DNA of 64,000 bases, taken from the NCBI GenBank assembly GCA_024277855.1, contig JAJRUJ010000011.1:4817-68816 (forward strand), written 5' to 3'. Source of the DNA: Candidatus Zixiibacteriota bacterium. GTDB taxonomy: Bacteria; Zixibacteria; MSB-5A5; WJJR01; JAJRUJ01. Positions within the stretch are counted from its first letter, which is position 1; each line of letters begins with the position of its first letter. The position numbers and the translations under genes were made by a program. This document shows, one piece after another, positions 1 to 39,882 of this stretch. The notes below the pieces were generated by a model that was not told the origin of the DNA, did not search any database, and saw nothing but the letters and a program-made list of their open reading frames with translations.

Positions 1-430
1 TCCGGGCAGGGTCGGATCGTTTAAGCATATCGGCGAGTTGACGGGCATAGACCTGTTGCTCACCCACTCGCCAGCCGAATGTACAGGAATTGCCGAGGCA
101 GACAATCCGGTAAACGCCCGGAGTTTTCTCCCGGCTAAAATCCGGCCCACGCAGGCCATGATTATTGATGTGGTATTCGCCTTCGACAAAGAAATCCGAT
201 TTGATGATCTGATTTGGGCGAAATCGCCAAAAGAGGTCGTGGTCTTTCAGAAAATATTCCGGGTAATCCCATTCGGGATTGAGCACAAAAGTTGTATCGT
301 CGGCGCGGCCGGAGAACCCGACAAGCAGCAGGACGATTTCCAAAATAACGAAGAACAGGAGAATGGCGATAAACGCATAGATGATCTTCCTGCCGGCCGT
401 CATTCTCACTTTGTCCGTAACCCTTGCCAT
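1..430 (-). CDS. SGNH/GDSL-hydrolase-like membrane-anchored protein, runs off the window (3' partial)
   Basis: Not in the ORF track. Manual translation from ATG at 430: MARVTDKVRMTAGRKIIYAFIAILLFFVILEIVLLLVG...INNHGLRGPDFSREKTPGVYRIVCLGNSCTFGW. It has an N-terminal TM helix, the N-x-x-G-x-R motif and a block-I-like RIVCLGNS-x-TFG. Confidence 0.75.
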   Translation of the reverse strand, partial: MARVTDKVRMTAGRKIIYAFIAILLFFVILEIVLLLVGFSGRADDTTFVLNPEWDYPEYFLKDHDLFWRFRPNQIIKSDFFVEGEYHINNHGLRGPDFSREKTPGVYRIVCLGNSCTFGWRVGEQQVYARQLADMLKRSDPAR

Positions 431-657
431 CCGTGGTCGCCGTCCATTTTTTTCGTACCAATTTACACCATGCTCACCCGGAGCGCATCCCTTCGCTAAG
501 ATTGGCTTTTGGCTGGTCGAGGCCAAGCCTTTTTCCAGGTGATTGATAAATCAACCCGGCTATTCTGCCGGCAACCAAAGGGCGGGAATTTCCTTGGAAA
601 AACCGACTAACCCCTTAAATTGCTGATGGGTTCTGATACACGAAGCAGGGTATTGCC

Positions 658-860
658 ATGCCGCCATTTTCGAAGCGAACATCCGCTTTGGTTTGCCTGC
701 TTTTTGCAGCAATTCCCACCTATGCCCTTGCCGACACCCATTGGGCCAATCCGGCTGGGTCCAATACACCGCCTTATACCAGCTATGCGACCGGGGCGCA
801 CTACCTGCAAGATGCTGTAGCGGCTCTTTCTCCCGGAGATACAATTCGCATCGTCGAGGA
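658..860 (+). pseudogene. 5' remnant of a secreted (probably beta-helix/DUF1565-like) protein
   Basis: Signal peptide followed by ADTHWANPAGSNTPPYTSYATGAHYLQDAVAALSPGDTIRI, a typical N-cap of right-handed beta-helix proteins. After about nt 860 the frame runs through palindromic repeats and loses protein-like character (ORF stop at 1107). Confidence 0.55.
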
Positions 861-972
861 AATTAGTTTTACAGAAGTAGGAATCCGAAACCCGGGGTGG
901 TCTGCTATGGGGGGCTTTCCCGTGTTTCATTCTATATGCAGAGCAAATACCCGGGGGCAAGGCTTCGAGATG

Positions 973-1156
973 GTAAACCCACCCGACGTTCGTCCCGCTA
1001 AGGCGGGATTCACTCTGGATGGGCTACGAAATCTTGTTTTGGGGCGGATTAGCAGAATGATACGGTGCCCCACCCGCCGCGGCGGGCTGTGGGATAGTAG
1101 AAAATAACAAAATGGATTCCCGCTCCAGTGCGCCTCCGGCGCACGGCGGGAATGAC
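973..1156. repeat. Cluster of REP-like GC-rich palindromes
   Basis: TCCCGC-TAAG-GCGGGA (993-1008) lies inside GTAAACCCA...TGGGCTAC. CCCGCCGCGGCGGG is at 1073-1086. TGGATTCCCGC...GCGGGAATGAC (1113-1156) has a nested GTGCGCC-TCC-GGCGCAC hairpin. Confidence 0.65.
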
Positions 1157-1218
1157 GTACTGTCATTGACTACTTTAATCGGTTGCCGCTCGCGTCGGGA
1201 ATGATGACAGGAAGCGCC

Positions 1219-1404
1219 CTAAAACAGGGTATAAATAAATGGTGCGATGGCGGATGTCTCAGCCAAAACAATAAAAACAGCCAGGATAAACAGGATAAAC
1301 AGGATCGGCCCCAACCACCATTTCTTGCGATGACGCAGAAAATACCAGAGCTCAGCAAACAACGATAATTTGCCCGAAATACTCACACCGATTTCCCTTT
1401 TCAA
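1219..1404 (-). CDS. DUF5989-family small membrane protein (start uncertain)
   Basis: LWYFLRHRKKWWLGPILFILFILAVFIVLAETSAIAPFIYTLF matches the KKWWL-P...SA-APFIYTLF signature. The family is usually found near SGNH and carbamoyltransferase genes. Confidence 0.8.
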   Translation of the reverse strand: MKREIGVSISGKLSLFAELWYFLRHRKKWWLGPILFILFILAVFIVLAETSAIAPFIYTLF

Positions 1405-1496
1405 TCAGTATAGAAAATCCCCAGCCCCAGGGTAATAATTCCCTCCCGCCGGCGATGTCGTCGGATATTTCGCCGCAGTTTGGCCGCTTTCTCCCC

Positions 1497-1521
1497 AAAA
1501 AAATACCCGCTTAACGCGGGG
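1497..1521 (-). terminator. Probable intrinsic terminator after the TPR-sigma54 activator
   Basis: CCCGC/GCGGG stem followed on the minus strand by a T-run. Confidence 0.45.
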
Positions 1522-1543
1522 AATATATCTATTAGAATTATAG

Positions 1544-4486
1544 CTATCTTTTAACCCGCTCGAGTTTGTACTGACGCATTTTCAGCCGCAGAGTTGATTC
1601 AGGTATCCCCAGACGGAGGGCGGCGTGTTTTTTGACCCACTTGTTTTCGGCCAACGCACGCAGGAGATGTTTTTTCTCGATAGCCGCGAGGTGATCGTAA
1701 AGGGAGAACCGATCACCGTCGATTTTGACTTCGTCATTCTCAACGGGCTGGTCGGCTGTGAACCTGCGTGAGAGAAGGTCTGCACCAATCTCCCCCGAGG
1801 CCTTGCCCAGCAACACGAGTTTTTTGATTTCATTCTCCAGTTCACGAACGTTGCCGGGCCAGTCATATTCCACAAGGTGGCGGAAAGTTACCGGGGCCAG
1901 TTTGGGCGGCGGTTCGTTATCATCATTGTCTCGATTGATGAAATGATCGACGAGAAGGGGGATGTCTTCGCGGCGGTCACGCAATGGCGGAATTGTAAAG
2001 GCCAGCGCCGAGAGTCGATAATACAGGTCTTGTCGGAATAACTTACGTTCGGTGTCGGCCCGCAGATCGCGGTTGGTTGCTGAAATCACCCGGACATCGA
2101 GCTTGCGCGGTTTATTTTCACCCAGCCGGACAATTTCTTTTTCTTCGAGAAAACGGAGGAGTTTCGCCTGCAGGGTGAGGGGCATATCACCGATTTCATC
2201 AAGGAAAAACGTGCCGCCGTCGGCTTCCTCAAACAAGCCCTTCTTGTCGTGATCGGCGCCGGTGAAAGCGCCTTTCTTATAGCCGAACAGCTCGCTTTCC
2301 AGCAGGGATTCCGGCAATGCGGCGCAGTTGACCGAGACAAAGCGTTCTTCACGCCGATTGGAATTATAATGAATGGCCTTGGCCAGGAGGTCTTTGCCGG
2401 TGCCGGTTTCGCCTTGAATCAGGATTGTGACGTTCGAATCCATGACCAGGCGGACACGCGAAAGCATTTGGATCATTTTTTCGCTGGCCGTGATGACACT
2501 GGGGAATCCGACTTTCTCGTTTAACTGGTTTTTTAGCCGGATGTTATCCTCGAGCAGTCCGGAGCGCTGCCGTTCGGCAAATTTAAGTGCCAGTATTTCG
2601 GCAAAGGCCACGGCGAAATCGACGTCCGAGGCGTCGAATGACGGCGGACGCGAACCATTGATGCGGCGATCCATATAGAGAATCGCAATTCCCTCGTGGC
2701 CAAGGTTAACCGGGATCGTCAGGACAGACAGCGTAATCGGATCGCCGTTGCGGTTGATAAATTCATGGATGTTCGGTTGATCGGCGAGATGGGATATTAC
2801 GCGGGGACGGTCGAGAGGAAAGACATCGAACGGTCCCCCGCCGGCCAGCCGCAATAGGCGACGTCGACGACCATCGGACAGGTTATGGGCAAAAAGGCAG
2901 TCTGCTTCGTCGGTTTCCGGGTGGGGGAGGATCAACGCCGCACCGTCCGCCCGCAAACGGCTGACCAGCAACCGGACAGTATCCTCAAAATTGCCGCCGC
3001 GAATGCCCCGTACTTCTCCCTCTGAGAGCACCGTATTGAAGATCCGATATTCATTTTGCTCGCCGAGTGCATGATCGGTCAGCAGGCCTTCCCAAAGTTG
3101 CCGCAATTTGGTCAATCGAGTGTCAATCAACCACTTCAGTTGTCCACCTGCTTCGGTTCGTTCGGTCAACTCGCCGATAATGCGGCCGGCGATATTCAAA
3201 TTATTCTCGGCAAGTTCGAGCGCGGCGCTAAGGACCAGAGGAAGATCACCGAGATATTCGGCGTCGAGGGTCGCAAATAGCGTCTCACATTCGGTCAAGG
3301 CCGACCGAGCTTGCAGCCGGTCGGCTGATTCAGAAGAACCGATTAAGAATTCACACTGGTAATATGTGGTCCAGGCCAGCTCGAAGGTATCGCCGACGCG
3401 CCGCAGGATGGCCAGTGCCTCGTCGAAATGCCTGCGGGCTTTGTCGACATTACGCCGTGCGGCGTAGAACCGAGCCAGCACCCGATGAGCGGCGCCGATT
3501 TCAGTTTTTTCGCCTAATTCCAAAGCGATGTCCAGAGCTTCGCGTGCTGTTTTTTCGGCGGCGGTGATCTCGCCCTGCTCAAAATAGGCCTCGGCCAGTC
3601 CCCGTAGCGACTGCGATACGAGATCGCCCTTTTCGGCTACCTCTCGCCCGATGGTTAATGCCTGTTCGAACTCGGCAACGGCAAGGTCGAAATCGCCAAG
3701 CAGGAGGGCCATCATCCCGCGATATTCGTGAAGAATCGAGTTTTCGCGCGTATATCCATTTTTTTCGATCAATGTTTCAGCATCGTCCAGGGATGCCACG
3801 GCCGTGGAGAATTTGCCTCGGCGAAGATTCAGCAGGCCGAGCGAGAGCCGGTTACGGGCAACGGACAGTTCGTTGCCGCGCCGAGACTGCGTGCGAATCG
3901 CAATTTTGATGCTCTCCGCCGCCTCAGCCCAGTTTGCCCGCAGCAGATGGATGCGTCCGAGGTTGCCAACCAATTTAGCGCGGAAATCGACATCGCCTTT
4001 GCTCTCGCAGTGGGAAATTGCCTCGGTGAGATGATCGATCGCCAGATCGAATTCTCCACGGATAAACTCGATGCGGGCCAGTTCGTTGTAGGAGCGGATG
4101 ATCCCATCGACGGCACCGATGCGGAAAAATGACGCAAGCGCATTGCGTATCTGGATGCGCGCATTTTTTAAATCGCCTTTGCCGGCATAGGCCTTGCCCA
4201 ATACCGTTAAGACTTCCGCCAATTGCTGGTGGTCGGTGGAATCGTTGAAATAAGTGAACGCCTCTTTTGCCGCATCGAGGGCATCGGTATAGCGGGCGAG
4301 GCCAAAACAGGCGGTTGCCCGATGAAAGGCGAGTTCAGCAGACCGGGCGGGCGCACCAACACTCTCGGCAGTCAGGGAGTCAATCTCCCGTAAGGCGGCC
4401 CGATAGGCGCATTCCGCCATGAGATTCCTAACCGTAACAAGTGCGGAATCAGCTTGCGCCGAATTGTGACGAGAGGTGGATTTCAT
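1544..4486 (-). CDS. sigma54-dependent enhancer-binding protein with N-terminal TPR array, GAF-like domain, AAA+ and Fis-type HTH (no receiver domain)
   Basis: About 440 aa of helical TPR-like repeats. Walker A GETGTGKD, ESELFGYKKGAFTGA, Walker B FLDEIGD, RQDLYYRL, WPGNVRELEN and a C-terminal HTH (AALRLGIPESTLRLKM). Confidence 0.93.
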   Translation of the reverse strand: MKSTSRHNSAQADSALVTVRNLMAECAYRAALREIDSLTAESVGAPARSAELAFHRATACFGLARYTDALDAAKEAFTYFNDSTDHQQLAEVLTVLGKAYAGKGDLKNARIQIRNALASFFRIGAVDGIIRSYNELARIEFIRGEFDLAIDHLTEAISHCESKGDVDFRAKLVGNLGRIHLLRANWAEAAESIKIAIRTQSRRGNELSVARNRLSLGLLNLRRGKFSTAVASLDDAETLIEKNGYTRENSILHEYRGMMALLLGDFDLAVAEFEQALTIGREVAEKGDLVSQSLRGLAEAYFEQGEITAAEKTAREALDIALELGEKTEIGAAHRVLARFYAARRNVDKARRHFDEALAILRRVGDTFELAWTTYYQCEFLIGSSESADRLQARSALTECETLFATLDAEYLGDLPLVLSAALELAENNLNIAGRIIGELTERTEAGGQLKWLIDTRLTKLRQLWEGLLTDHALGEQNEYRIFNTVLSEGEVRGIRGGNFEDTVRLLVSRLRADGAALILPHPETDEADCLFAHNLSDGRRRRLLRLAGGGPFDVFPLDRPRVISHLADQPNIHEFINRNGDPITLSVLTIPVNLGHEGIAILYMDRRINGSRPPSFDASDVDFAVAFAEILALKFAERQRSGLLEDNIRLKNQLNEKVGFPSVITASEKMIQMLSRVRLVMDSNVTILIQGETGTGKDLLAKAIHYNSNRREERFVSVNCAALPESLLESELFGYKKGAFTGADHDKKGLFEEADGGTFFLDEIGDMPLTLQAKLLRFLEEKEIVRLGENKPRKLDVRVISATNRDLRADTERKLFRQDLYYRLSALAFTIPPLRDRREDIPLLVDHFINRDNDDNEPPPKLAPVTFRHLVEYDWPGNVRELENEIKKLVLLGKASGEIGADLLSRRFTADQPVENDEVKIDGDRFSLYDHLAAIEKKHLLRALAENKWVKKHAALRLGIPESTLRLKMRQYKLERVKR

Positions 4487-4540
4487 AATCTCGTTTGGAT
4501 TACATTTTGGGTTTCCCGGCCTGCGCTAAATCCATTTTGC

Positions 4541-4825
4541 TTATTTGAGCACCTCGAGTAATTTCCAGATGATCAGGAATTTTTCAAATGCTTTCCTGGG
4601 CTCGCTAAACGGTGAGCCGTCGTCGTTCCGGGTCAGGTCTACAACAATCGTTGTGTCGCCCGGTTGATCTCCCGGCGCGGTTTCGTCATCGCCTTGCCCA
4701 TCGTCCCAGGGGTGACCATCTGAAGTCGTGCCGACTGGCAGAGGGTTCTCTGCAGCGCTCATAAGAGGTATAAGCAAAATCACCACACACAGGCCGATGG
4801 CAGTGAGAAATTTCAATTTCTCCAT
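4541..4825 (-). CDS. Small exported protein or peptide precursor (94 aa)
   Basis: Strong RBS (AGGGAGGTGG) before the ATG. Sec-type signal peptide MEKLKFLTAIGLCVVILLIPLMSAA, acidic low-complexity core containing SDGHPWDDG, amphipathic C-terminal helix. Ends 54 nt before the activator start. Confidence 0.75.
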   Translation of the reverse strand: MEKLKFLTAIGLCVVILLIPLMSAAENPLPVGTTSDGHPWDDGQGDDETAPGDQPGDTTIVVDLTRNDDGSPFSEPRKAFEKFLIIWKLLEVLK

Positions 4826-4951
4826 CGGACCACCTCCCTAAAAAAAAGTTGCCCCACCCGCCCCGGGCGGGGTTTGGATTACTTAATTACTTTATCCCGT
4901 TGTCAAAAAACGAATTTTAACTCATGATGTCAAGCGATTCGAGGGGATAAA

Positions 4952-4978
4952 TGCAAAAAATGCGTCGCAGAATCTGCG
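4952..4978. promoter_or_regulatory. Candidate tandem upstream activator sites (YGCA-N5-TGCG twice)
   Basis: TGCA-AAAAA-TGCG-T-CGCA-GAATC-TGCG: two adjacent inverted repeats about 290 bp upstream of the sigma54 promoter. Confidence 0.4.
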
Positions 4979-5264
4979 CATATTGTCGTATCTGATTATT
5001 ACCGTTGCGGTTAGTAGTCTAAAGACTGTGGACGGCAATTCCCAAATACCATCTTAAGATTGACCGGGATCGTATCGGCGATGGTAAGTAAACCTTTGGT
5101 CGCAGGCCTCTCTGATATGGGGTATCTCCCATAATTCAATGCCTTATCGTTGCTGAATTACGCCCCGGCAAATCCGTGCACAACTGCTGTCATATTAGCT
5201 AAGACCAATTAAAATAATGGGTTGCAACTTTAACACCCCGGCAAGAGCACCCTAATGGCTGTCC

Positions 5265-5280
5265 CGGCATGGTAGTTGCC
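5265..5280 (+). promoter_or_regulatory. sigma54 (-24/-12) promoter
   Basis: CGGCATGGTAGTTGCC against consensus TGGCACG-N4-TTGCW, with exact GG-N10-GC spacing, about 58 nt before the ATG at 5338. Confidence 0.7.
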
Positions 5281-5337
5281 AAATCCAGGGTGTAGCAATG
5301 GGGTTTTTGGCTTTGCGCTTTAACGGTGGGGTAGCAA

Positions 5338-7347
5338 ATGGCACTTTTTCGATTTCAATCATCTTCTCATCCGACTATTTCGGGAATTGTCCGCTATGGC
5401 ATTCCCGGCCGGATCGGGGTCAGCTGTCTGGTCATTGTCTTATTGGCGGGATGTTCGTTGGAATCGCCGAAGGGGCCTACCTGGACAGTCGACCTGACTA
5501 TCCCGATTGCAGACAGGCACTACGACCTTCCATACATAATAGAACATGCCAATCAGCCGGAGTTGATCTGGGATTCAGTCTCCGGAGCACGGTTCGAAAT
5601 TCAGCGGACTCTCGACACTATATATATTGGTGAAAACATCACCTTCTCCGACCTCCAGCAGACAATCGGCGACTCCCTGGGGTCGGTGAAAATCCTCCCC
5701 GATCAGGCGTTGGAGAGCAGCATTGCATTAGAGGATATCTACGGCGGCCCGGTCGGCGCCATCCCGGCATTTGATACGCAAACCCAGCGAGATTTCGACC
5801 AATTGACCGACATTCAGCAGGCCGAGATCGCCGAGGGGCAACTGGCTATCGAAGTTGCCAACAATCTGGGTTTGGCACTCGATAGTGTCGAGGTTGCCAT
5901 CATTGATATTGAATCGGCCGCTGAAATCGGCCGAGCTATTTTTGCCGGGGGGATTCCGGCCGGTCAGCAGGGCCAGGCCGCCGTTGATTTGGCCGGCCAA
6001 ACTATTCACGATCGGTTGCGCTGTGATGTCATGCTCAGTTCGCCAGGCGGATATCTGGAATCGACTGCCGGCCGGAGTGTCGATATCGCCGTCTCTTTTG
6101 CCGATTCGCTTCAGGTTACCAGCACGGTGGCCCGGCTTGGCGCGATTGAAAGACTTGTCGCCGATACAGTCACGCTTTCCAATGAATTCGCGGCCACCTC
6201 CGCGAAATTCCAACGGGGCTTTCTCAACTTGCAGGTGATCAATGGGGTCGAGTTGGGGTTCGACTATCAACTGCGGTTTCCCGATCTTCGGGATGAGGGT
6301 GGACCGGTGAATTTAACCGGTTACCTCGACGCGGAGTCTTTCGATTATCTGTCGGTCGACCTTCAGGGCATCGAATACGACAATAATTTCTCGGTCGGCA
6401 CTCCGTTGCGGGTCGAGGCCATTTTGCAGACTTCCGGTTCCGCCGGCTTGGTTTCGATTTCGGCCGCAGACCGTTTTACAGTGCAGGTCGATATCGACTC
6501 ACCGGTCATTGAATCGATTACCGGTGTCCTGCCGCCGACTGTCCAGGCAGTAACTAATTTACAAACCGAAGTGAACCTCCCGGACGGATTTGAGAACGTC
6601 GGTTTGGCCGGCGGTGAGATGCAACTGACCATCGTCAGTTCATTGCCTTTCCCCGGCGAGTTTTCTTTGGATTTAGCCGGTGACCAGTTACAAGCGTTGT
6701 CGGTCAGTGGCGAGATTATCCCGGCCACGGAAGTTCCGGTTTCCAGTTATATCAACGTTGCCGACGCCACGTCACTATTGTCTCCAGTGCCGCGAATGAT
6801 TACCGCATCGGGGACGATTATTTACGGCGACGGTGTGACCTCGGGTACCGTGTATTCCACAGATTATCTGGTGCCGTCGTTTACATTGGTCGCCCCGCTT
6901 TCGGTCTACCTCGATGAAGTTGATTACCATGGAGAGACCGAAGGCATTGAACTGCCCGGCGAATCGGACGATCTGGCCGGGCGATTCGGTGCCGCGTCTA
7001 TCCAAGTGGAATTTGAAAATCGTCTGCCTTTTGGTGTGACGATTGAATTGCGGCTGGCGTCGAGCCGGGCAATGTTGCCGGACAATGCAGAATTGGTTCT
7101 GGGGCCGACCGTGATCTCTCCGGCGGCAGTGGATGACGACGGACGGACAACGGCGGCGGCTCATTCGAGCGACGTGTTTACCATCGCCGCGGAGATGGCT
7201 CATCTTTTCGAAGGCGACTCACTGTTCGTCACCGAACAAATCGGGTTCTTCTCGGCCAACGGCTCGGTGGTCACATTGCGCGACTCAGACTACATCGATT
7301 GGCGCGCGCTGTTGACGGTGGAAACCAAACTCGGAGACCGGAACTGA
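5338..7347 (+). CDS. Large beta-rich lipoprotein of unknown function
   Basis: Lipobox LLAG-C followed by SLESPKGPTWTVDLTIPI. Acidic and beta-strand rich, 669 aa. Exact start uncertain. Confidence 0.8.
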   Translation: MALFRFQSSSHPTISGIVRYGIPGRIGVSCLVIVLLAGCSLESPKGPTWTVDLTIPIADRHYDLPYIIEHANQPELIWDSVSGARFEIQRTLDTIYIGENITFSDLQQTIGDSLGSVKILPDQALESSIALEDIYGGPVGAIPAFDTQTQRDFDQLTDIQQAEIAEGQLAIEVANNLGLALDSVEVAIIDIESAAEIGRAIFAGGIPAGQQGQAAVDLAGQTIHDRLRCDVMLSSPGGYLESTAGRSVDIAVSFADSLQVTSTVARLGAIERLVADTVTLSNEFAATSAKFQRGFLNLQVINGVELGFDYQLRFPDLRDEGGPVNLTGYLDAESFDYLSVDLQGIEYDNNFSVGTPLRVEAILQTSGSAGLVSISAADRFTVQVDIDSPVIESITGVLPPTVQAVTNLQTEVNLPDGFENVGLAGGEMQLTIVSSLPFPGEFSLDLAGDQLQALSVSGEIIPATEVPVSSYINVADATSLLSPVPRMITASGTIIYGDGVTSGTVYSTDYLVPSFTLVAPLSVYLDEVDYHGETEGIELPGESDDLAGRFGAASIQVEFENRLPFGVTIELRLASSRAMLPDNAELVLGPTVISPAAVDDDGRTTAAAHSSDVFTIAAEMAHLFEGDSLFVTEQIGFFSANGSVVTLRDSDYIDWRALLTVETKLGDRN

Positions 7348-7368
7348 TCGGGTGAGAGGGAGCGGAAT

Positions 7369-8634
7369 ATGTTAAATACCAAATATCATCTTCGGATACC
7401 CCTCGCGTCGATTTTCGGATCGATCTTCCTGTTGATCGGGGCACTTCCCGCAGGGGCGGCGCCGGTCACCCCCCGGGCGGTCGGCATGGCCAACAATGCT
7501 TTTTCCCTCGCGACGGGGATGGAAGCGCTCACGGAAAATCCGGCCGCGCTGGCATTGCCTAAGTCGAATTCCTGGGAATTACGCATCCTGGATGCCACCT
7601 CGGGATTTGGTTCAAATGCCCTGGGATTCAGTGACTACCGCCTGTACAACGGCGCTGAGTTAAGCGAACAGGATAAAGCAGATATTCTGGCGAAGATCCC
7701 GGGCGAGGGTTGGGAACTTGGCGGTTATGCCGAAGCCTCGGCCGCTGCCTTGCGGGTCGGATCGTTCGGCGCCCGGGTTTCCGGCTTTGGCGCTGCGCGG
7801 GGCAATATCGATCGTGAGATGCTGGAAATCCTCTTCTGGGGGAATGAACTGGATCGCACGTATACTTCGGAGTTGAACTCCGGCGAGGTTCTTGCCGCCG
7901 TCCAGTTCGCAATTTCCTACGGAACCTATCTGACTAATTGGCGCGGTCATCAGGTTTCCGGCGGACTGACCTTCCGTTACCTCCGGGGATTGTATTATGC
8001 CGAACTGGAACAGGCCGAGGGTTCATTGGTGGCCGGCTATGCGGGAGTAACCGGATCGGGTTACGCTACGGCAACCACGGCTGAAGGTGGTTCGGGACTG
8101 GCGATTGACTGGGGCACTACTGTCGAACTCGGACCGCGATATACTCTCTCGATGACTCTGGAAAACGTCCCGGGGTTTATTCGTTGGTCGAACAAGGCGC
8201 AAACAAAAGACTATTCTCTTATCTTCGACGGGATAACCGCCGACAATTTTGAAGATTCTCTCTGGGTGGAAGAAGAAAGCTCGACTTCAATTCCATCATT
8301 TACCCGCACTATCCCGGCTAATTTTCGCCTGGGGCTGGGTAAGACCGGCACGGCCTGGAAAACTGCCGCCACATTTTCGGTCGGTTTTGAAAACCGACTG
8401 GCAAGTTCGACCAGGCCGGAAGCGGGAATCGGCGTTGAATATTCAGCAATCTCATTTTTGCCGCTGCGGGCAGGATTCACTGTAGGCGGCCTCTATGGAT
8501 ATACCGTTGGGTTTGGCGGAGCGCTTCACCTCGGGGTTTGGCATCTTGAAGCCGCCACATTAGCCAACGGCGGATTCTGGCCAACCAGGGCACGCGGTCT
8601 TACCGCGTCATTCGCTTGCGGTTTTCATTTCTAA
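7369..8634 (+). CDS. Outer-membrane beta-barrel protein (DUF5723/FadL/PorV-like)
   Basis: Signal peptide, PRAVGM...ENPAALA N-terminal plug motif, alternating strands, LPLRAG motif, C-terminal GFHF. Confidence 0.75.
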   Translation: MLNTKYHLRIPLASIFGSIFLLIGALPAGAAPVTPRAVGMANNAFSLATGMEALTENPAALALPKSNSWELRILDATSGFGSNALGFSDYRLYNGAELSEQDKADILAKIPGEGWELGGYAEASAAALRVGSFGARVSGFGAARGNIDREMLEILFWGNELDRTYTSELNSGEVLAAVQFAISYGTYLTNWRGHQVSGGLTFRYLRGLYYAELEQAEGSLVAGYAGVTGSGYATATTAEGGSGLAIDWGTTVELGPRYTLSMTLENVPGFIRWSNKAQTKDYSLIFDGITADNFEDSLWVEEESSTSIPSFTRTIPANFRLGLGKTGTAWKTAATFSVGFENRLASSTRPEAGIGVEYSAISFLPLRAGFTVGGLYGYTVGFGGALHLGVWHLEAATLANGGFWPTRARGLTASFACGFHF

Positions 8635-8656
8635 TCTGCGGGAAGAAAGGTTTATC

Positions 8657-10369
8657 ATGCGCACGTTGGGGAAATACACAATCTTGCTTCTGGGTCTGCT
8701 ACTGTGGATGTCGACGACAGCCCAGGCGATGCCGCCGTGTCTTCAGTTACAGCAATCGGAAGAACCATTGGCCCGGCAGACGCTGCAGACTATCCAGTCG
8801 TTACGGGCCAGAGGGGCGGCCACCGGGTTGGATCAACCCGACCCCCTGCTTGCCGGGACTGCGGTAACCGGCTCGCGCAAGCTGCTGGTCATCCTGGTTA
8901 AGTTCAGTGACCATCCGTCGTCTGTGGCGGGCACGTATTTCGACAGTCTGATGTTCAGCCAGACGGGACAATCGGTATGGGATTATTATGATGAGGCGTC
9001 TTACGGCACCTTGTCGATTGACCCAGGGGACTTGCCGTCGGTGATCGGCTGGCAGACCGCACCACAGACATATGCTTACTATACCAATGGCCAGGGTGGC
9101 ACCGGCCCTTATCCGCAGAATTCGCAAAAACTCTGCGAAGACCTGATCGCCCAGATCGACGCTACGGTTGACTTTAGCAATTACGACGGAAACAATGACG
9201 GCATCGTTGACGGCATCGTCATTATTCATTCGGGCTCCGGCGCCGAACGGACCGGTAATTTGAATGACATCTGGTCGCATAAATGGAGTATCTGGCCCTC
9301 CCAGGTTCGGGACGGGAAGACGATCAGTTCATATACGATTCAGCCGGAGTACTGGGACTCGCCGGGGGACATGACCATTGGCGTCTACTGTCATGAATTA
9401 GGCCATTTGATCCTGGGATTGCCCGATCTTTATGATTACGACGACGGGGTCGGTGCGTCACGCGGACTCGGCTTGTGGTCGTTGATGGCCTCCGGTTCGT
9501 GGGGCGGGCCGTCGTTCGACGGCGATTATCCTTCACTCCTGGATGCCTGGTCACGGGTCGCCGCCGGCTGGGTTACCCCGACAGTGATATCCGCCGCCGG
9601 GAATGATGTCAGCATTCCCGCAGTGCAGAGTTCACCGACGATTTTTAAACTTTGGACTGACGGCGGGCCAATCGGCGATGAATACTATCTGGTGGAAAAC
9701 CGTCAGCGGGTCGGCTATGACACGTATCTTCCCGGCGACGGCTTGCTGATTTATCATGTCGATGATGCGGTAAGCACCGGAAATGACAAAGAGTGGTATC
9801 CGGGCCACACTTCGACAGGGCATTACCTCGTGGCGGCCGAGCAGGCCGACGGCAACTGGGACCTGGAAAAAAACGTCGCCTTTAACTATGGGGACTCCGG
9901 CGATCCGTACCCGGGATCGAGTAACAGCCGGCTGTTTACCGCCGCGTCCACGCCGTCATCGGATGACTATGCCGGTGACCCGACTTATGTTGTCGTGTCC
10001 GACATTTCCAACTCGGCGGCCACCATGACCGCGGATTTTAATGTGACTTTGGGGTCGGGGGTCTTTGAGGAATACGATGCCGCCGCGCCCACGGCGTTTT
10101 CTCTGGGGCAAAACTATCCGAATCCATTTAACCCTGCGACACGATTTGAGTATGCCCTGCCGCAAGACGGCCGGGTCATAGTCGAGGTACGCAATATCCT
10201 TGGGCAGTCGGTTCGCACACTCTACACCGGGTATCGCGCCGCCGGGGTCTATACCGCTTTCTGGGAAGGGACTGATGACGACGGCCGACCGGTTGCGGCG
10301 GGCGTCTATTTCTATCGCGTCAGCGCAGATTCCGGCTCAAAAACAGGCAAAATGATATTGTTGAAATAA
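8657..10369 (+). CDS. Secreted M6-family (immune inhibitor A-like) zinc metalloprotease with T9SS-type/FlgD-Ig C-terminal domain
   Basis: Signal peptide, LVILVKFSD, IWSHKW, HELGH-x3-GLPDLYD, WSLMASGSW, EYYLVENRQ. C-terminal LGQNYPNPFNPAT...GVYFYR...KMILLK. Confidence 0.92.
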   Translation: MRTLGKYTILLLGLLLWMSTTAQAMPPCLQLQQSEEPLARQTLQTIQSLRARGAATGLDQPDPLLAGTAVTGSRKLLVILVKFSDHPSSVAGTYFDSLMFSQTGQSVWDYYDEASYGTLSIDPGDLPSVIGWQTAPQTYAYYTNGQGGTGPYPQNSQKLCEDLIAQIDATVDFSNYDGNNDGIVDGIVIIHSGSGAERTGNLNDIWSHKWSIWPSQVRDGKTISSYTIQPEYWDSPGDMTIGVYCHELGHLILGLPDLYDYDDGVGASRGLGLWSLMASGSWGGPSFDGDYPSLLDAWSRVAAGWVTPTVISAAGNDVSIPAVQSSPTIFKLWTDGGPIGDEYYLVENRQRVGYDTYLPGDGLLIYHVDDAVSTGNDKEWYPGHTSTGHYLVAAEQADGNWDLEKNVAFNYGDSGDPYPGSSNSRLFTAASTPSSDDYAGDPTYVVVSDISNSAATMTADFNVTLGSGVFEEYDAAAPTAFSLGQNYPNPFNPATRFEYALPQDGRVIVEVRNILGQSVRTLYTGYRAAGVYTAFWEGTDDDGRPVAAGVYFYRVSADSGSKTGKMILLK

Positions 10370-10406
10370 CAAGAGAGAGGAACCGTCCGGAAAAAGGAGG
10401 AGCAAC

Positions 10407-11165
10407 ATGCGGACGAAACTGTTGTTGTCTTTGGTAGTGTTGGTGGCGGCTGTCGGTTTGATCGGCTGCGGTTCGGAGTCGGTGACCAATGTCTCGCCTA
10501 CCAACAACGCTGGCCTGAAACTGGTCGTCAATTCCAGCAGTAACCTTACCGTGCTGGATGAGTCGGCCCGGCTCGCACCCTGGAATGAGGGGCAACCCGA
10601 CTCGCTGACTATCACCAGCGGGACGTTCCTGGTTCGGTCAATTCGTTTTCTGAATGTGAATGACTACACCGTTGACACCGATATTTCGGCGTCCGACGAA
10701 GCACGCGACCAAAGCGATCAGTTGGTCCCATTCCAGGGACCGTATGTTTTGCAGACCAATGGGAGCGTCGAGGATCTCGGCGACCAGACTGTCAATGTCG
10801 GCGATTATAATGCATTGTCGCTGATTCTGCACCAGGGCAAGTCGACCGATGATTTGGGCACAAACACCAACATGGTCGGCAATAGTGTGGTAGTGACAGG
10901 GTACGTTTGGTACGGCAACAACGCCGAGCAATTCAGTTTTACGCTCGACCTGAAGACCGAAATCCTGGTCCGGGGTGATTTCGCGGTTCCGTCGACCGGG
11001 AATCCCGAATTTGTGCTTGAATTCGACGTGAATAAATGGTTCCGCTACGGTGATACCTGGCTGAACCCGAACGACCCGGAAAACTTGCCGCAGATTTACG
11101 GCAATATCCAGAAGTACATTCAGGGCGGCCGTGACTACAACGGGAACGGCAGCATCGGAGACTGA
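10407..11165 (+). CDS. Lipoprotein, DUF4382-like beta-sandwich
   Basis: RBS AGGAGGAG, lipobox LIG-C, GDYNAL...VLEFDVNKWF...LNPND pattern. Confidence 0.7.
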   Translation: MRTKLLLSLVVLVAAVGLIGCGSESVTNVSPTNNAGLKLVVNSSSNLTVLDESARLAPWNEGQPDSLTITSGTFLVRSIRFLNVNDYTVDTDISASDEARDQSDQLVPFQGPYVLQTNGSVEDLGDQTVNVGDYNALSLILHQGKSTDDLGTNTNMVGNSVVVTGYVWYGNNAEQFSFTLDLKTEILVRGDFAVPSTGNPEFVLEFDVNKWFRYGDTWLNPNDPENLPQIYGNIQKYIQGGRDYNGNGSIGD

Positions 11166-11198
11166 CCGAAGCTCCGACAGTATCAGCCGCCTGAAATC

Positions 11199-11257
11199 AA
11201 GGGCCCCCGCCATTGCGCAAGCCCCCGTGCCGGACATCGGACGGGGGCCCTTTTTTT
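11199..11257 (+). terminator. Intrinsic terminator ending the four-gene operon
   Basis: GCCCCCGT...ACGGGGGC stem followed by CC and T7. An upstream AAGGGCCCCCG can pair alternatively with the same 3' arm. Confidence 0.75.
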
Positions 11258-11415
11258 GGGCGGATTACGTCAATCCAGGGGCGTACCGGACAGAGGATAT
11301 CGTTGGCCGGCCGGCCGATTTTCTGTGCCCGTGATGCGTCCATACCCTTGGCTGGACGGGAGTATCAAGTTGCGGTGGCCTGGAGGGGGATGGATTTCTC
11401 TGAGATGTCGTCGGT

Positions 11416-12138
11416 TCAAAACCCCCGTGGGGTAAATACGAGAGCCAACCTGCGTGAACTTGCGGCCAGCCCGCGAATCGTCGCGTCAATCCGGGCCGGG
11501 TTACCGGTGGCGATCGCCGGGCCGAGGGCGTCAACCGCACGGACAACCATATTCCGTTCATAATCAAACGCATTTTGCACGACCCGGTAATCGCCGCCGA
11601 TTTTAGTGTTGAGGAGCCGTTCGGTCGCGTGCCGCAGTGCGGCCAAATCGGCAGGAGACGGCGGCCTGCCATGCGGTGATTTATCGTTATCAATCAATGG
11701 TTCCACCACGGCGGCAAATTCGGTAACTGCGGGTGGGGGACCGGCAAGGGTAATCGATAGATAGGCGAAAGCGGTATCGACCATATGCAGCCGTCGCCGA
11801 ACCAAATCGTGTTTCTCGGTGGTCATGATATCCAGGAAGCGACCCGATGAATTGATGAAATACTCTCGCGCTTTCTTATAGATACGCTCCCGGCCGGGAT
11901 AGTCTACGGTCGGTTTTGCCCGTCCGACACTGGCGCTTGCGGCCTTGAATCGTTCTTTCCGTGAGGAAATGTAATCATAGTCCCCGTGGGGCAGGGCCAA
12001 ATGCAGCATGTTGTTCATAATCGCCCGGAATTCTTCAAACTCAGCCGGCCGGGGAGGACGATGTTCGGCGCGCAGGCCTCCCGCGAGAAAAATGCCGGAA
12101 ATAATGCCCAGGCAAACGATGAGCAGTCGCTTATTCAT
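11416..12138 (-). CDS. Exported all-helical hypothetical protein with an internal duplication
   Basis: Signal peptide MNKRLLIVCLGIISGIFLAGGLRA and two similar helical halves (PRPAEFEEFRAIM / PPPAVTEFAAVV). Confidence 0.65.
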   Translation of the reverse strand: MNKRLLIVCLGIISGIFLAGGLRAEHRPPRPAEFEEFRAIMNNMLHLALPHGDYDYISSRKERFKAASASVGRAKPTVDYPGRERIYKKAREYFINSSGRFLDIMTTEKHDLVRRRLHMVDTAFAYLSITLAGPPPAVTEFAAVVEPLIDNDKSPHGRPPSPADLAALRHATERLLNTKIGGDYRVVQNAFDYERNMVVRAVDALGPAIATGNPARIDATIRGLAASSRRLALVFTPRGF

Positions 12139-36567: not shown

Positions 36568-36601
36568 CTCGAATCTCCCGGGGGCACGACAAAAAAACCA
36601 T

Positions 36602-36964
36602 ACCGGCGGTCGATAAGCCGGGTTCTGTAATCCGCGAAGCGGACTGATGACCATTTATCTGGCATTGCCGTCGCCGGCAACGTCATGCAGCCTACCCGGG
36701 AGTAAAACGGGGCAAGCGACCCCTGTCTCCCTGCTTGGCCTTGCTCCGGGTGGGGTTTACACGGCCCGGTCGGTTACCCGTCCGGCCGGTGGTCTCTTAC
36801 ACCACCTTTTCACCCTTACCACCCGCTGACGCGTGTGGCGGTTATTTTCTGCTGCACTTTCCGTCGGATTGCTCCGCCCTCGTGTTACGAGGCACCCCGC
36901 TTTGTGGAGCCCGGACTTTCCTCACATCGAATATATTCCGATGCGCGGTCATCTGACCACCGGT
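36602..36964 (-). ncRNA. rnpB: RNase P RNA (bacterial type A)
   Basis: Minus strand has GAGGAAAGTCCGGGCTCC, AGTGCAGCAGAAA, GGGTGAAAAGGTG, GGAGCAAGGCCAA and ACAGAACCCGGCTTA. Ends pair as P1 (ACCGGTGGTC/GACCGCCGGT). Confidence 0.95.
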
Positions 36965-39662: not shown

Positions 39663-39739
39663 TGGTGGGCAATACAGGATTTGAACCTGTGGCCTTTCGG
39701 ATGTGAACCGAACGCTCTAACCAACTGAGCTAATCGCCC
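39663..39739 (-). tRNA. tRNA-Val (anticodon CAC), CCA encoded
   Basis: GGGCGATTAGCTCAGTTGGTTAGAGCG-TTCGG-TT-CAC-AT-CCGAA-AGGCCACAGGTTCAAATCCTGTATTGCCCACCA. Confidence 0.95.
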
Positions 39740-39808
39740 ACGCCTCCTCGTCTTTTCCGCTTCGCGCGTTTTTCTTTAAGTCGTCCATCTCCTGTGTCGG
39801 TCCTGATG

Positions 39809-39882
39809 TGGGCCCACCAGGACTCGAACCTGGGACCAACTGATTATGAGTCAGTTGCTCTAACCAACTGAGCTATGGGCCC
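39809..39882 (-). tRNA. tRNA with CAT anticodon, probably tRNA-Ile2 (lysidine). CCA not encoded
   Basis: GGGCCCATAGCTCAGTTGGTTAGAGCA-ACTGA-CT-CAT-AA-TCAGT-TGGTCCCAGGTTCGAGTCCTGGTGGGCCCA. Paired 1-72 position, so not initiator. Location downstream of dnaG is typical of Ile2. Confidence 0.9.

Follow-up and report, generated by a model that had tools for sequence, protein, structure and literature searches.

In a 64,000-nt stretch of a Zixibacteria genome (hereafter the window, meaning the whole stretch of DNA that was analysed), a gene for a small, probably exported protein, sm, is followed by a gene for a sigma-54-dependent activator, act, whose N-terminal part is a tetratricopeptide-repeat (TPR) array. 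At the level of sequence, a small exported protein and a TPR-first activator form a conserved and specific gene pair; the regularity is strong, with dozens of paralogous pairs, and such pairs look like a two-gene signalling module that has gone undescribed. The reading that we favour, tentatively and as plausible rather than probable, is that sm-act is a two-gene sensory module in which a motif of sm, the HPW box, serves as ligand of the TPR domain, and which controls a divergently oriented operon for an M6 protease. An earlier note on this DNA had proposed a peptide-sensing circuit here, and the features from which it argued were recovered: a 94-aa open reading frame (ORF) with a strong ribosome-binding site (RBS), a signal peptide, the HPW motif and an amphipathic tail, with the 980-aa activator beginning 54 nt downstream and both genes on the minus strand. 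The FCB-like host that it envisaged is likewise borne out, as the genome is a 3.07-Mb, 129-contig metagenome-assembled genome (MAG) from the Zixibacteria, which belong to the FCB group.

By its domain sequence, act encodes a bona fide sigma-54 activator. Pfam placed TPRs at about aa 50-460 (TPR_12, 1.2e-28; TPR_MalT, 3.6e-21), a GAF domain at aa 500-634 (23.8 bits against a cut-off of 22.4), Sigma54_activat (PF00158) at aa 665-828 (1.6e-70), with the GAFTGA motif present and AAA_lid_14 following in an AAA+ region that spans aa 665-918, and a Fis-type HTH_8 domain at aa 933-973 (1.5e-10). The same genome carries rpoN (C24:6972-7448). The inputs known for sigma-54 activators are receiver domains, small-molecule sensors and partner proteins, among them PspA, NifL and FleN. 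Pfam found no receiver domain in act, and none of the genome's 30 HATPase_c matches falls on the window's 76-kb contig, in agreement with the proposal of an activator that lacks a receiver and has no kinase nearby.

The pair is retained across relatives. When 61 related genomes were searched with sm, an activator N-terminus adjoined it in 14 of 19 loci, the other five being weak sm matches or contig ends, and wherever the activator was present (15/15 loci) the ORF directly upstream of it was small, encoded a signal peptide and had the motif HPW[DQ]D. In an independent scan, an alignment of the N-terminal sensor was run against 185,579 species genomes and gave 31 loci, 27 of them with an activator N-terminus; two of these had less than 220 nt of upstream DNA and were left out, and in the remaining 25 a small signal-peptide ORF abuts the activator without exception (25/25; gaps of -1 to 51 nt). 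Consistent adjacency, on which the earlier proposal staked itself, was therefore found at every orthologous locus that could be judged. The HPW ORF is present in 24 of the 27 loci, and one further locus (L075) has AEDPWDENK, a DPWDE variant, in an ORF overlapping the activator start. A profile of this protein class (sm1) matches 37 of 285 surveyed genomes of the phylum, with most matches in three families (2/2 in f1, 13/15 in f2 and 19/21 in f5) and one other family at 0/108. Many of the related MAG records are titled 'uncultured Ignavibacteria' while their own closest relatives are titled Zixibacteria, and the labels look inconsistent.

Gene neighbourhoods differ while the pair stays intact. 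In f1 and f2 it is divergent from an operon comprising g669, a DUF5723 gene, the M6 protease gene and a DUF4382 gene, with the full set at 8 of 14 loci, the M6 and DUF4382 genes only at two, and none of them at four. In f5 the genes preceding the pair are fab, rnc and etfB-like, those following it are an LplA-like gene and one for a TonB-dependent receptor, and the g669 operon of these genomes is located elsewhere, beside a WYL-type regulator. Small protein and activator thus remain paired in three settings (M6 operon, fab/etfB context and the ArgZ/arginase operon described below), which ties sm to act and not to the protease. For the same reason we set aside, as a main reading, the idea that sm is a dedicated substrate or inhibitor of the M6 protease, since sm accompanies act even in genomes that have the protease operon at another site.

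The HPW box is the hallmark of the small proteins. Residues H38, P39, W40 and D42 are invariant across 14 aligned sm proteins that share only 22-48% overall identity, and among 71 database homologues the core reads HPWDD in 70 and HPWQD in one, so the conservation that had been expected of this motif holds. None of the 71 has a name beyond 'hypothetical', and wherever an organism is given it belongs to the Zixibacteria. Within the motif the codons vary synonymously (all four for Pro, both for His and Asp); selection therefore acts on the protein, and the sm ORF is, on this comparison, more than chance. Neither Pfam nor NCBIfam matched sm to a family, and an atlas look-up gave top scores of 0.86-0.88, under 0.9, to unnamed hypothetical proteins, which serves as a lead only. 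The RBS is identical in one of the two closest relatives (L046) and almost so in the other (L047).

Inspection of sm suggests a signal peptide made up of MEKLK as n-region, a hydrophobic core of 17 residues (Kyte-Doolittle 2.54 over 19 residues) and a cleavage-type site between SAA and E, and an n-h-c pattern with AxA-like sites was seen in all sm homologues by inspection and hydrophobicity scan; the small protein is probably secreted by Sec. SDGHPWDDG lies in a body with abundant Asp, Glu, Gly, Pro and Thr. The HPW box starts 11-20 residues past the predicted cleavage site and only two past it in the f5 class (L055-L071), where predicted AxA cleavage would leave a mature N-terminus X-D-H-P-W-D-D with His at position 3. 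A second conserved segment is C-terminal, in proteins 90-130 aa long. We considered whether sm could be a lipoprotein and rejected this, as the signal-peptide Cys of f1 lies outside any lipobox and is missing from other families.

The pairing extends to paralogues. TPR-first activators number 1-5 per genome in 30 of 41 related genomes, and a small signal-peptide ORF abuts or overlaps the activator start at all 17 judgeable paralogous loci; of 20 further loci, two gave no frame and the 18 with a detectable activator frame likewise have a small exported ORF. The motif varies by class, as HPWQD, HEWNE, HPWND, DPWNE, YPWGN and HPWDF and, further, HPAGD, HPNDD, HPNER, HPIRD, HPVGD and AHANGG; four paralogous loci carry a different, C-terminal motif. 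One class, act2, comprises TPR-AAA+-HTH proteins of 732-752 aa without GAF, whose partner sm2 has AHPWQDD, DHPWQD[DE] or EHPWGDE and overlaps act2 by 4 nt or ends 2 nt before it. At four loci (L083, L085, L086 and L045) the genes divergent from sm2-act2 encode an ArgZ-like arginine dihydrolase, an LRR lipoprotein and an arginase-family protein, which suggests that this paralogue controls arginine catabolism; a pattern scan of the sm2-act2 divergent intergenic region gave no sigma-54-type element. The genome of the window has a second module of its own (sm3-act3; L092, C24:17000-29000; 3829..6723, minus), in which a 762-aa TPR-AAA+-HTH activator comes after a tandem pair of small signal-peptide ORFs that are near-duplicates of each other (lengths 119 and 124 aa; ETEAHEWNE and ETEGHGWEP as motifs), with a 594-aa lipoprotein bearing a type IX secretion system (T9SS) sorting domain upstream. 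GAF is missing from the act2 and act3 classes, so TPR is the shared input domain: of the TPR-plus-GAF input first proposed for act, the TPR half is common to all pairs, whereas GAF is dispensable.

Specificity was gauged by running the same script over the 14 activator frames of the window's own genome. Both N-terminal-TPR activators have the small ORF (2/2) and none of the other 12 does (0/12). Several of these 12 adjoin a histidine kinase, and one (L133, C56:50000-55900; 859-5802, plus) is a 1648-aa Pkinase-AAA_16 (STAND-like)-TPR-GAF-Sigma54-HTH_8 protein in which the TPR is internal and no small ORF lies upstream. With TPR-first activators paired in this way and kinases beside others, the small exported ORF holds the place that a sensor-kinase gene has at classical activators. 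At one paralogous locus (L101; G007:C20, 1465-3087, minus) the small ORF, with the motif EGHPHGD, runs in frame and without a stop into the TPR activator, as the result of genuine fusion or of misassembly; the related loci L111 and L104 have separate overlapping ORFs.

These patterns bear on an alternative in which sm is no input to act at all and is instead a co-expressed exported effector (for instance a metal-binding peptide of the periplasm, an envelope component, a protease inhibitor or a chaperone), with TPR and GAF sensing a metabolite or another protein. The predicted mature f5 N-terminus, with His at position 3, resembles the amino-terminal Cu/Ni-binding motif, the GAF domain of act1 is a classic small-molecule sensor, and binding of sm to the TPR is itself conjectural, all of which speak for it. 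We nevertheless regard it as unlikely, because it leaves unexplained why the 2-5 TPR activators of a genome each have their own divergent small ORF in the same position, often translationally coupled and in unrelated neighbourhoods, and why 0/12 activators that are not TPR-first have one; the correspondence between motif and TPR class would also be coincidence.

A leader ORF would account for position in another way, with translation or export of sm controlling translation of act in the manner of SecM-secA or MifM-yidC2 and the HPW box as a nascent-chain arrest element. A small exported ORF does stand directly upstream of a regulated gene, often overlapping it, the motif is rich in Pro and Trp, and in the window a hairpin precedes the sm RBS. 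In arrest peptides of the SecM, MifM and VemP type, enough chain separates the motif from the export signal for pulling force to be sensed. The sm proteins do not have this spacing, with the box 11-20 residues (two in f5) past the cleavage site, and the signal peptide would still be in the ribosome tunnel at the point of arrest. The motif also differs with TPR class, which nothing requires of an element acting on the ribosome, only TPR-first activators have the small ORF, and the hairpin is not conserved. We consider this explanation very improbable and the least likely of those weighed here.

Structural modelling points to the TPR domain as a possible receptor. In an AlphaFold2 model of act built on 27 sequences, a TPR superhelix occupies aa ~5-475 (pLDDT mostly >90) and an alpha/beta GAF domain aa ~489-640 (pLDDT ~85), followed by a long connecting helix and a poorly modelled AAA+ domain. 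Foldseek against the PDB matched the TPR part to LGN/Pins-peptide complexes (3sf4_B, 6hc2_C and 4wnd_A; TM-score by target 0.50-0.55, E 4e-9 to 2e-8, 18-20% identity), other TPR matches being an APC subunit and TSK, and none of the matches listed (ranks up to 50) carried the title of an RRNPP receptor; the C-terminal part matched ZraR (1ojl), NtrX, DmpR, FleQ and NtrC1. Across 63 distinct paralogues N175, R295 and E329 are present in 63/63, Y255 and Q292 in 62/63 and R122 in 61/63, whereas R178, W186, S208 and N212 are class-specific. The sensor's polar ladder (Table 1) falls on the alternate model helices 126-143, 166-182, 206-223, 246-263 and 288-304, and in TPR folds such alternate helices line the inner groove.

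Co-variation between motif and groove, which the earlier note had proposed as a check, was sought in the 52 pairs whose motif could be assigned. TPR position 178 and the residue that follows Trp gave the highest normalised mutual information for a groove helix: Asp after Trp pairs with Arg178 in 34/34, and Gln pairs with Thr or Gln in 5/5. Two sister loci change together, L118 having DPWDD with R and L122 DPWQD with Q. The correspondence is suggestive but falls short of significance, as taken up below. A complex prediction between TPR-GAF (aa 1-640) and mature sm (aa 26-94) scored 0.01 against a mark of 0.32 and counts neither way.

The favoured reading can be laid out as follows. The sm-act module would stand where a histidine kinase/response regulator pair stands at other sigma-54 activators of the genome. 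sm would be made from the same transcript as act and then exported by Sec; its HPW box, DGHPWDD, would be the cognate ligand of the concave groove in the N-terminal TPR superhelix of act, reaching it either as a processed fragment re-taken from the periplasm or as a precursor not yet exported. Occupancy of the groove would alter the sensor's control of the AAA+ domain, and act, bound at its operator (4952-4978), would remodel sigma-54 RNA polymerase at the promoter at 5265-5280, switch on the divergent operon, whose M6 protease would be secreted to the cell surface by the T9SS. Through this operator act probably also autoregulates the sm-act promoter. We favour the box as ligand because it is the most conserved part of sm, differs by paralogue class, is paired with a TPR of peptide-binding type and shows the Asp/Arg178 hint.

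Several observations weigh against this reading. sm has a signal peptide, whereas act must work in the cytoplasm, and no import route is evident at the locus, the single SBP_bac_5 (OppA-type) gene lying on another contig. The TPR residues conserved throughout could instead be there for contact with the AAA+ domain of the same protein. Known propeptides are shorter than sm, whose second conserved segment, at the C-terminus, has no role in the ligand model, and pheromones diverge fast whereas the motif does not vary across three families. In a tree that leaves out the position-178 column, the Asp-Arg178 co-variation comes down to 3-4 independent pairs, of which one or two changed the same way and none the opposite way (p >= 0.5); it is suggestive, reflects about two evolutionary events and is not significant. 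Finally, the palindrome CGCA-N5-TGCG that we take as the candidate operator does not occur within 900 nt of the g669 promoter in f5 genomes (0/5), so the link from act to the g669 operon is supported only where the two are adjacent.

The C-terminal segment of the small proteins raises a different possibility, that sm, once its signal peptide has been cleaved, stays at the inner membrane with the HPW box as a periplasmic sensing or cleavage site while the C-terminal segment and a basic tail hold or release the TPR domain in the cytoplasm. Such a co-sensor would resemble an anti-sigma factor with its extracytoplasmic function (ECF) sigma factor, here for a sigma-54 activator. Taking about 1.6 as the membrane-helix level for 19-residue hydrophobicity, the second hydrophobic stretch reaches that strength in some paralogues (2.22 in sm2 of L045, 2.33 in sm3b of the window's own genome), and in several a tail of 35-43 residues with a net charge of +6 to +7 comes after it; except in f1, every class has basic tails (+4 to +7). 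The 4-nt stop/start overlaps suggest equimolar synthesis, the in-frame read-through at L101 would, if real, be a membrane-anchored fusion, and no peptide importer is needed in a diderm. Against this, the window's sm has no tail and its amphipathic C-terminal segment, AFEKFLIIWKLLEVLK, peaks at 0.35 (other sm1 proteins at 0.8-1.2, under ~1.6), the part most conserved is the N-proximal HPW box and not the tail, the Asp-Arg178 co-variation, if real, points to contact between HPW box and TPR, and L101 is a single MAG case that may be an assembly error. We therefore rate a membrane-held co-sensor as rather unlikely. Two features depart from the picture first put forward: the motif lies near the mature N-terminus and not the C-terminus, and the membrane-helix-like C-terminal segment and basic tail of some paralogues fit a membrane-tethered partner no less than a diffusible peptide. 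A sortase- or exosortase-type sorting signal in the hydrophobic segment and basic tail was considered and rejected, the tails being 20-43 residues long and the window's sm having none.

How far the HPW-ligand reading resembles known peptide signalling can be judged against the RRNPP systems of Firmicutes (Rap-Phr, NprR-NprX, PlcR-PapR, PrgX and AimR-AimP), to which the earlier note had likened the locus. In those systems the mature peptide re-enters through Opp and binds the TPR groove; for sm-act, the corresponding steps would be return of an sm peptide and its binding by act. In one study, the five-point RRNPP signature is a 10-100-aa propeptide gene, its product Sec-secreted, adjoining a TPR receptor of about 250-500 aa; receptors have an N-terminal effector and a C-terminal TPR domain, and the N-terminal-TPR arrangement was discarded there (PMC10075063). 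Measured against that signature, sm at 94 aa is within propeptide size, its relatives of 90-130 aa are partly over the limit, the receptor is a TPR protein and the genes adjoin (25/25 orthologous and 35/35 paralogous loci), whereas act has 980 aa and its paralogues 732-762 aa, and the TPR is N-terminal with the effector (AAA+ and HTH) C-terminal. Further likenesses are the several orthogonal pairs per genome with motif variants and an output that includes a secreted protease operon; further differences are an output through a sigma-54 AAA+ ATPase with a Fis-type HTH instead of an XRE-type HTH or phosphatase, a conserved motif near the mature N-terminus, and a diderm host. No homology of act to RRNPP receptors was found: Pfam gives generic TPR families, and the TPR matches listed by Foldseek were LGN/Pins, APC and TSK. 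Small size, TPR and adjacency thus carry the comparison, and receptor size, domain order, output and nearest folds depart from it; the resemblance would be one of logic, no sign of common descent being seen, and sm-act at most works like an RRNPP system without being a member.

Other known systems match parts of the locus. Like the enhancer-binding proteins NtrC, NifA, DmpR and FleQ, act has Sigma54_activat with GAFTGA, an AAA lid and HTH_8, together with a candidate upstream operator, a -24/-12 promoter and rpoN in the genome; unlike them, it takes as input an N-terminal superhelix of 11-12 TPRs, with or without GAF, in place of a receiver, V4R, PAS or CARF domain, and has a cognate small exported protein and no kinase. 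The best solved TPR fold match to act is to LGN/Pins, whose entry titles show complexes with partner peptides (Inscuteable, NuMA and Frmpd4); these are eukaryotic polarity proteins, the resemblance is one of fold only, and groove binding in act is what the model would predict by analogy. In ZraP-ZraSR, CpxP-CpxAR and PspA-PspF, a small accessory protein beside a sigma-54 regulator (ZraR, PspF) or an envelope regulator modulates its activity, ZraP and CpxP acting on a transmembrane kinase and PspA being cytoplasmic; the sm-act locus differs in having no kinase, and sm differs in matching nothing in Pfam or NCBIfam. TPR_MalT, the family of the STAND/MalT sensors, matches the act sensor (3.6e-21), but act lacks the STAND NTPase module, and the genome's third activator, Pkinase-AAA_16-TPR-GAF-Sigma54-HTH, has neither an N-terminal TPR nor an sm. 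A search of open-access papers and preprints turned up neither an account of a sigma-54 activator that has a TPR input and a small exported partner nor any work on sigma-54 in Zixibacteria, in keeping with the view that the system had not been characterised.

If the pairing is a signalling link, it would represent a new type of input for sigma-54 control, an instance of peptide or mini-protein signalling with cytoplasmic TPR receptors outside the Firmicutes, in a diderm, and a naturally occurring series of orthogonal sensor pairs whose specificity motif can be read. The most ambitious form of this view, which we think doubtful though possible, is that 2-5 orthogonal pairs per genome each use an exported mini-protein in place of a kinase, that an HPW peptide returns and is read by an LGN-like TPR groove through a simple specificity code (Asp-Arg178, Gln-Thr/Gln), and that RRNPP logic evolved independently in a diderm, wired to sigma-54 and controlling a surface protease operon. 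sm-act also offers a first handle on the regulation of secreted proteases and arginine catabolism in an uncultured, protein-degrading phylum. Even if sm is not the ligand, the rule that every N-terminal-TPR activator has the small ORF and no other activator does needs an explanation.

The divergent intergenic region carries a tandem palindrome as candidate operator. The palindrome CGCA-N5-TGCG precedes the sm ATG by 143-256 nt in 26/26 act1-type loci, or 27/27 with the distant act1-like L090, and in 0/6 act2-type loci. Genome-wide it has 73 copies against about 47 expected by length alone, and only one of the 73, that of the sm-act locus, lies 60-400 nt upstream of a GGCA[CT]-N5-TTGC element. 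We infer that act may bind the palindrome. The sm-act unit has a TTGACA box and no clear -10 element, and the hairpin between this box and the sm RBS is not kept in the two closest relatives, L046 and L047. The sites in f2 and f5 were also considered as sigma-54 promoters facing sm and rejected, since GG is present in a minority only, the site is palindromic and a TTGACA box follows. In f2 loci only (L048-L056), TGGYRC-N5-TTGCT faces sm 16-19 nt upstream of the palindrome; it would be an additional promoter, giving positive feedback, or else a second, degenerate operator copy. A second palindrome, whose TGGG-N6-CCCA form recurs in 5 of 10 f1/f2 loci, could be another regulator's site. Rfam gave no match in window positions 1-12000, and the sm-act intergenic region is not a known RNA family.

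Facing the other way, the divergent 669-aa gene has a sigma-54-type promoter 58 nt ahead of its ATG, at the position (5265) where the earlier note had placed it. The element has three mismatches to TGGCAC-N5-TTGCW, and what makes it convincing is solely its conservation in relatives: GGCAY-N5-TTGC was found at a constant distance from sm in 9/9 and then 10/10 loci, and a sigma-54 promoter is retained upstream of the g669 homologue in 5/5 f5 genomes with the operon elsewhere. A consensus scan allowing up to two mismatches gave 8 matches against 26 expected, none at the sm-act locus. The features of the locus and its operon are collected in Table 1.

Table 1. Features of the sm-act locus and the divergent operon, in window coordinates.
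Feature	Position	Strand	Basis or details
Terminator-like hairpin after act	1506..1520	minus	
act, 980-aa sigma-54 activator	1544..4486	minus	Pfam, NCBIfam, AlphaFold2, Foldseek
TPR-sensor-coding part of act	3062..4474	minus	Polar ladder N134, N175, N212, E254/Y255, Q292/R295; class-specific R178
sm, small, probably exported protein, 94 aa	4541..4825	minus	ORF and homologues
Parts of sm			Signal peptide (predicted) aa 1-25; HPW box DGHPWDD aa 36-42; acidic linker; amphipathic C-terminal helix
RBS of sm, GGGAGGTGG	4830..4838	minus	Sequence; 4 nt before ATG
9-bp GC-rich hairpin followed by T-run, between TTGACA box and sm RBS	4852..4872	minus	Intrinsic terminator/attenuator-like
TTGACA (-35-like) box of sm-act unit	4928..4933	minus	CTTGACAA downstream of palindrome; conserved in all aligned loci
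Tandem palindromic operator (candidate)	4952..4978		TGCA-N5-TGCG 4952-4964; CGCA-N5-TGCG 4966-4978
Second palindrome, TATGGGG-TATC-TCCCATA	5116..5133		TATGGGG-N4-CCCCATA type (TGGG-N6-CCCA); ~140 nt upstream of sigma-54 promoter
Sigma-54-type promoter CGGCAT-N5-TTGCC, CGGCATGGTAGTTGCC	5265..5280	plus	GG and GC at -24/-12 spacing
g669, 669-aa lipoprotein, first operon gene	5338..7347	plus	Lipobox LLAGC; no known family
DUF5723 protein, 421 aa	7369..8634	plus	Pfam PF18990, 1.5e-10
M6 (immune inhibitor A-like) metalloprotease	8657..10369	plus	HELGH; T9SS C-terminal sorting domain; PF05547; TIGR03296 4.4e-67; TIGR04183
DUF4382-like lipoprotein, 252 aa	10407..11165	plus	PF14321 2.6e-4, below cut-off; syntenic in relatives

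Two further observations concern the rest of the window. Downstream of act lies a hydrophobic 61-aa ORF (1219-1404, minus), which is kept together with the following gene in the two f1 relatives only. Farther along, the minus strand carries a class A RNase P RNA (311 bits) and two genes for tRNAs at 36598-36964 and 39666-39882.

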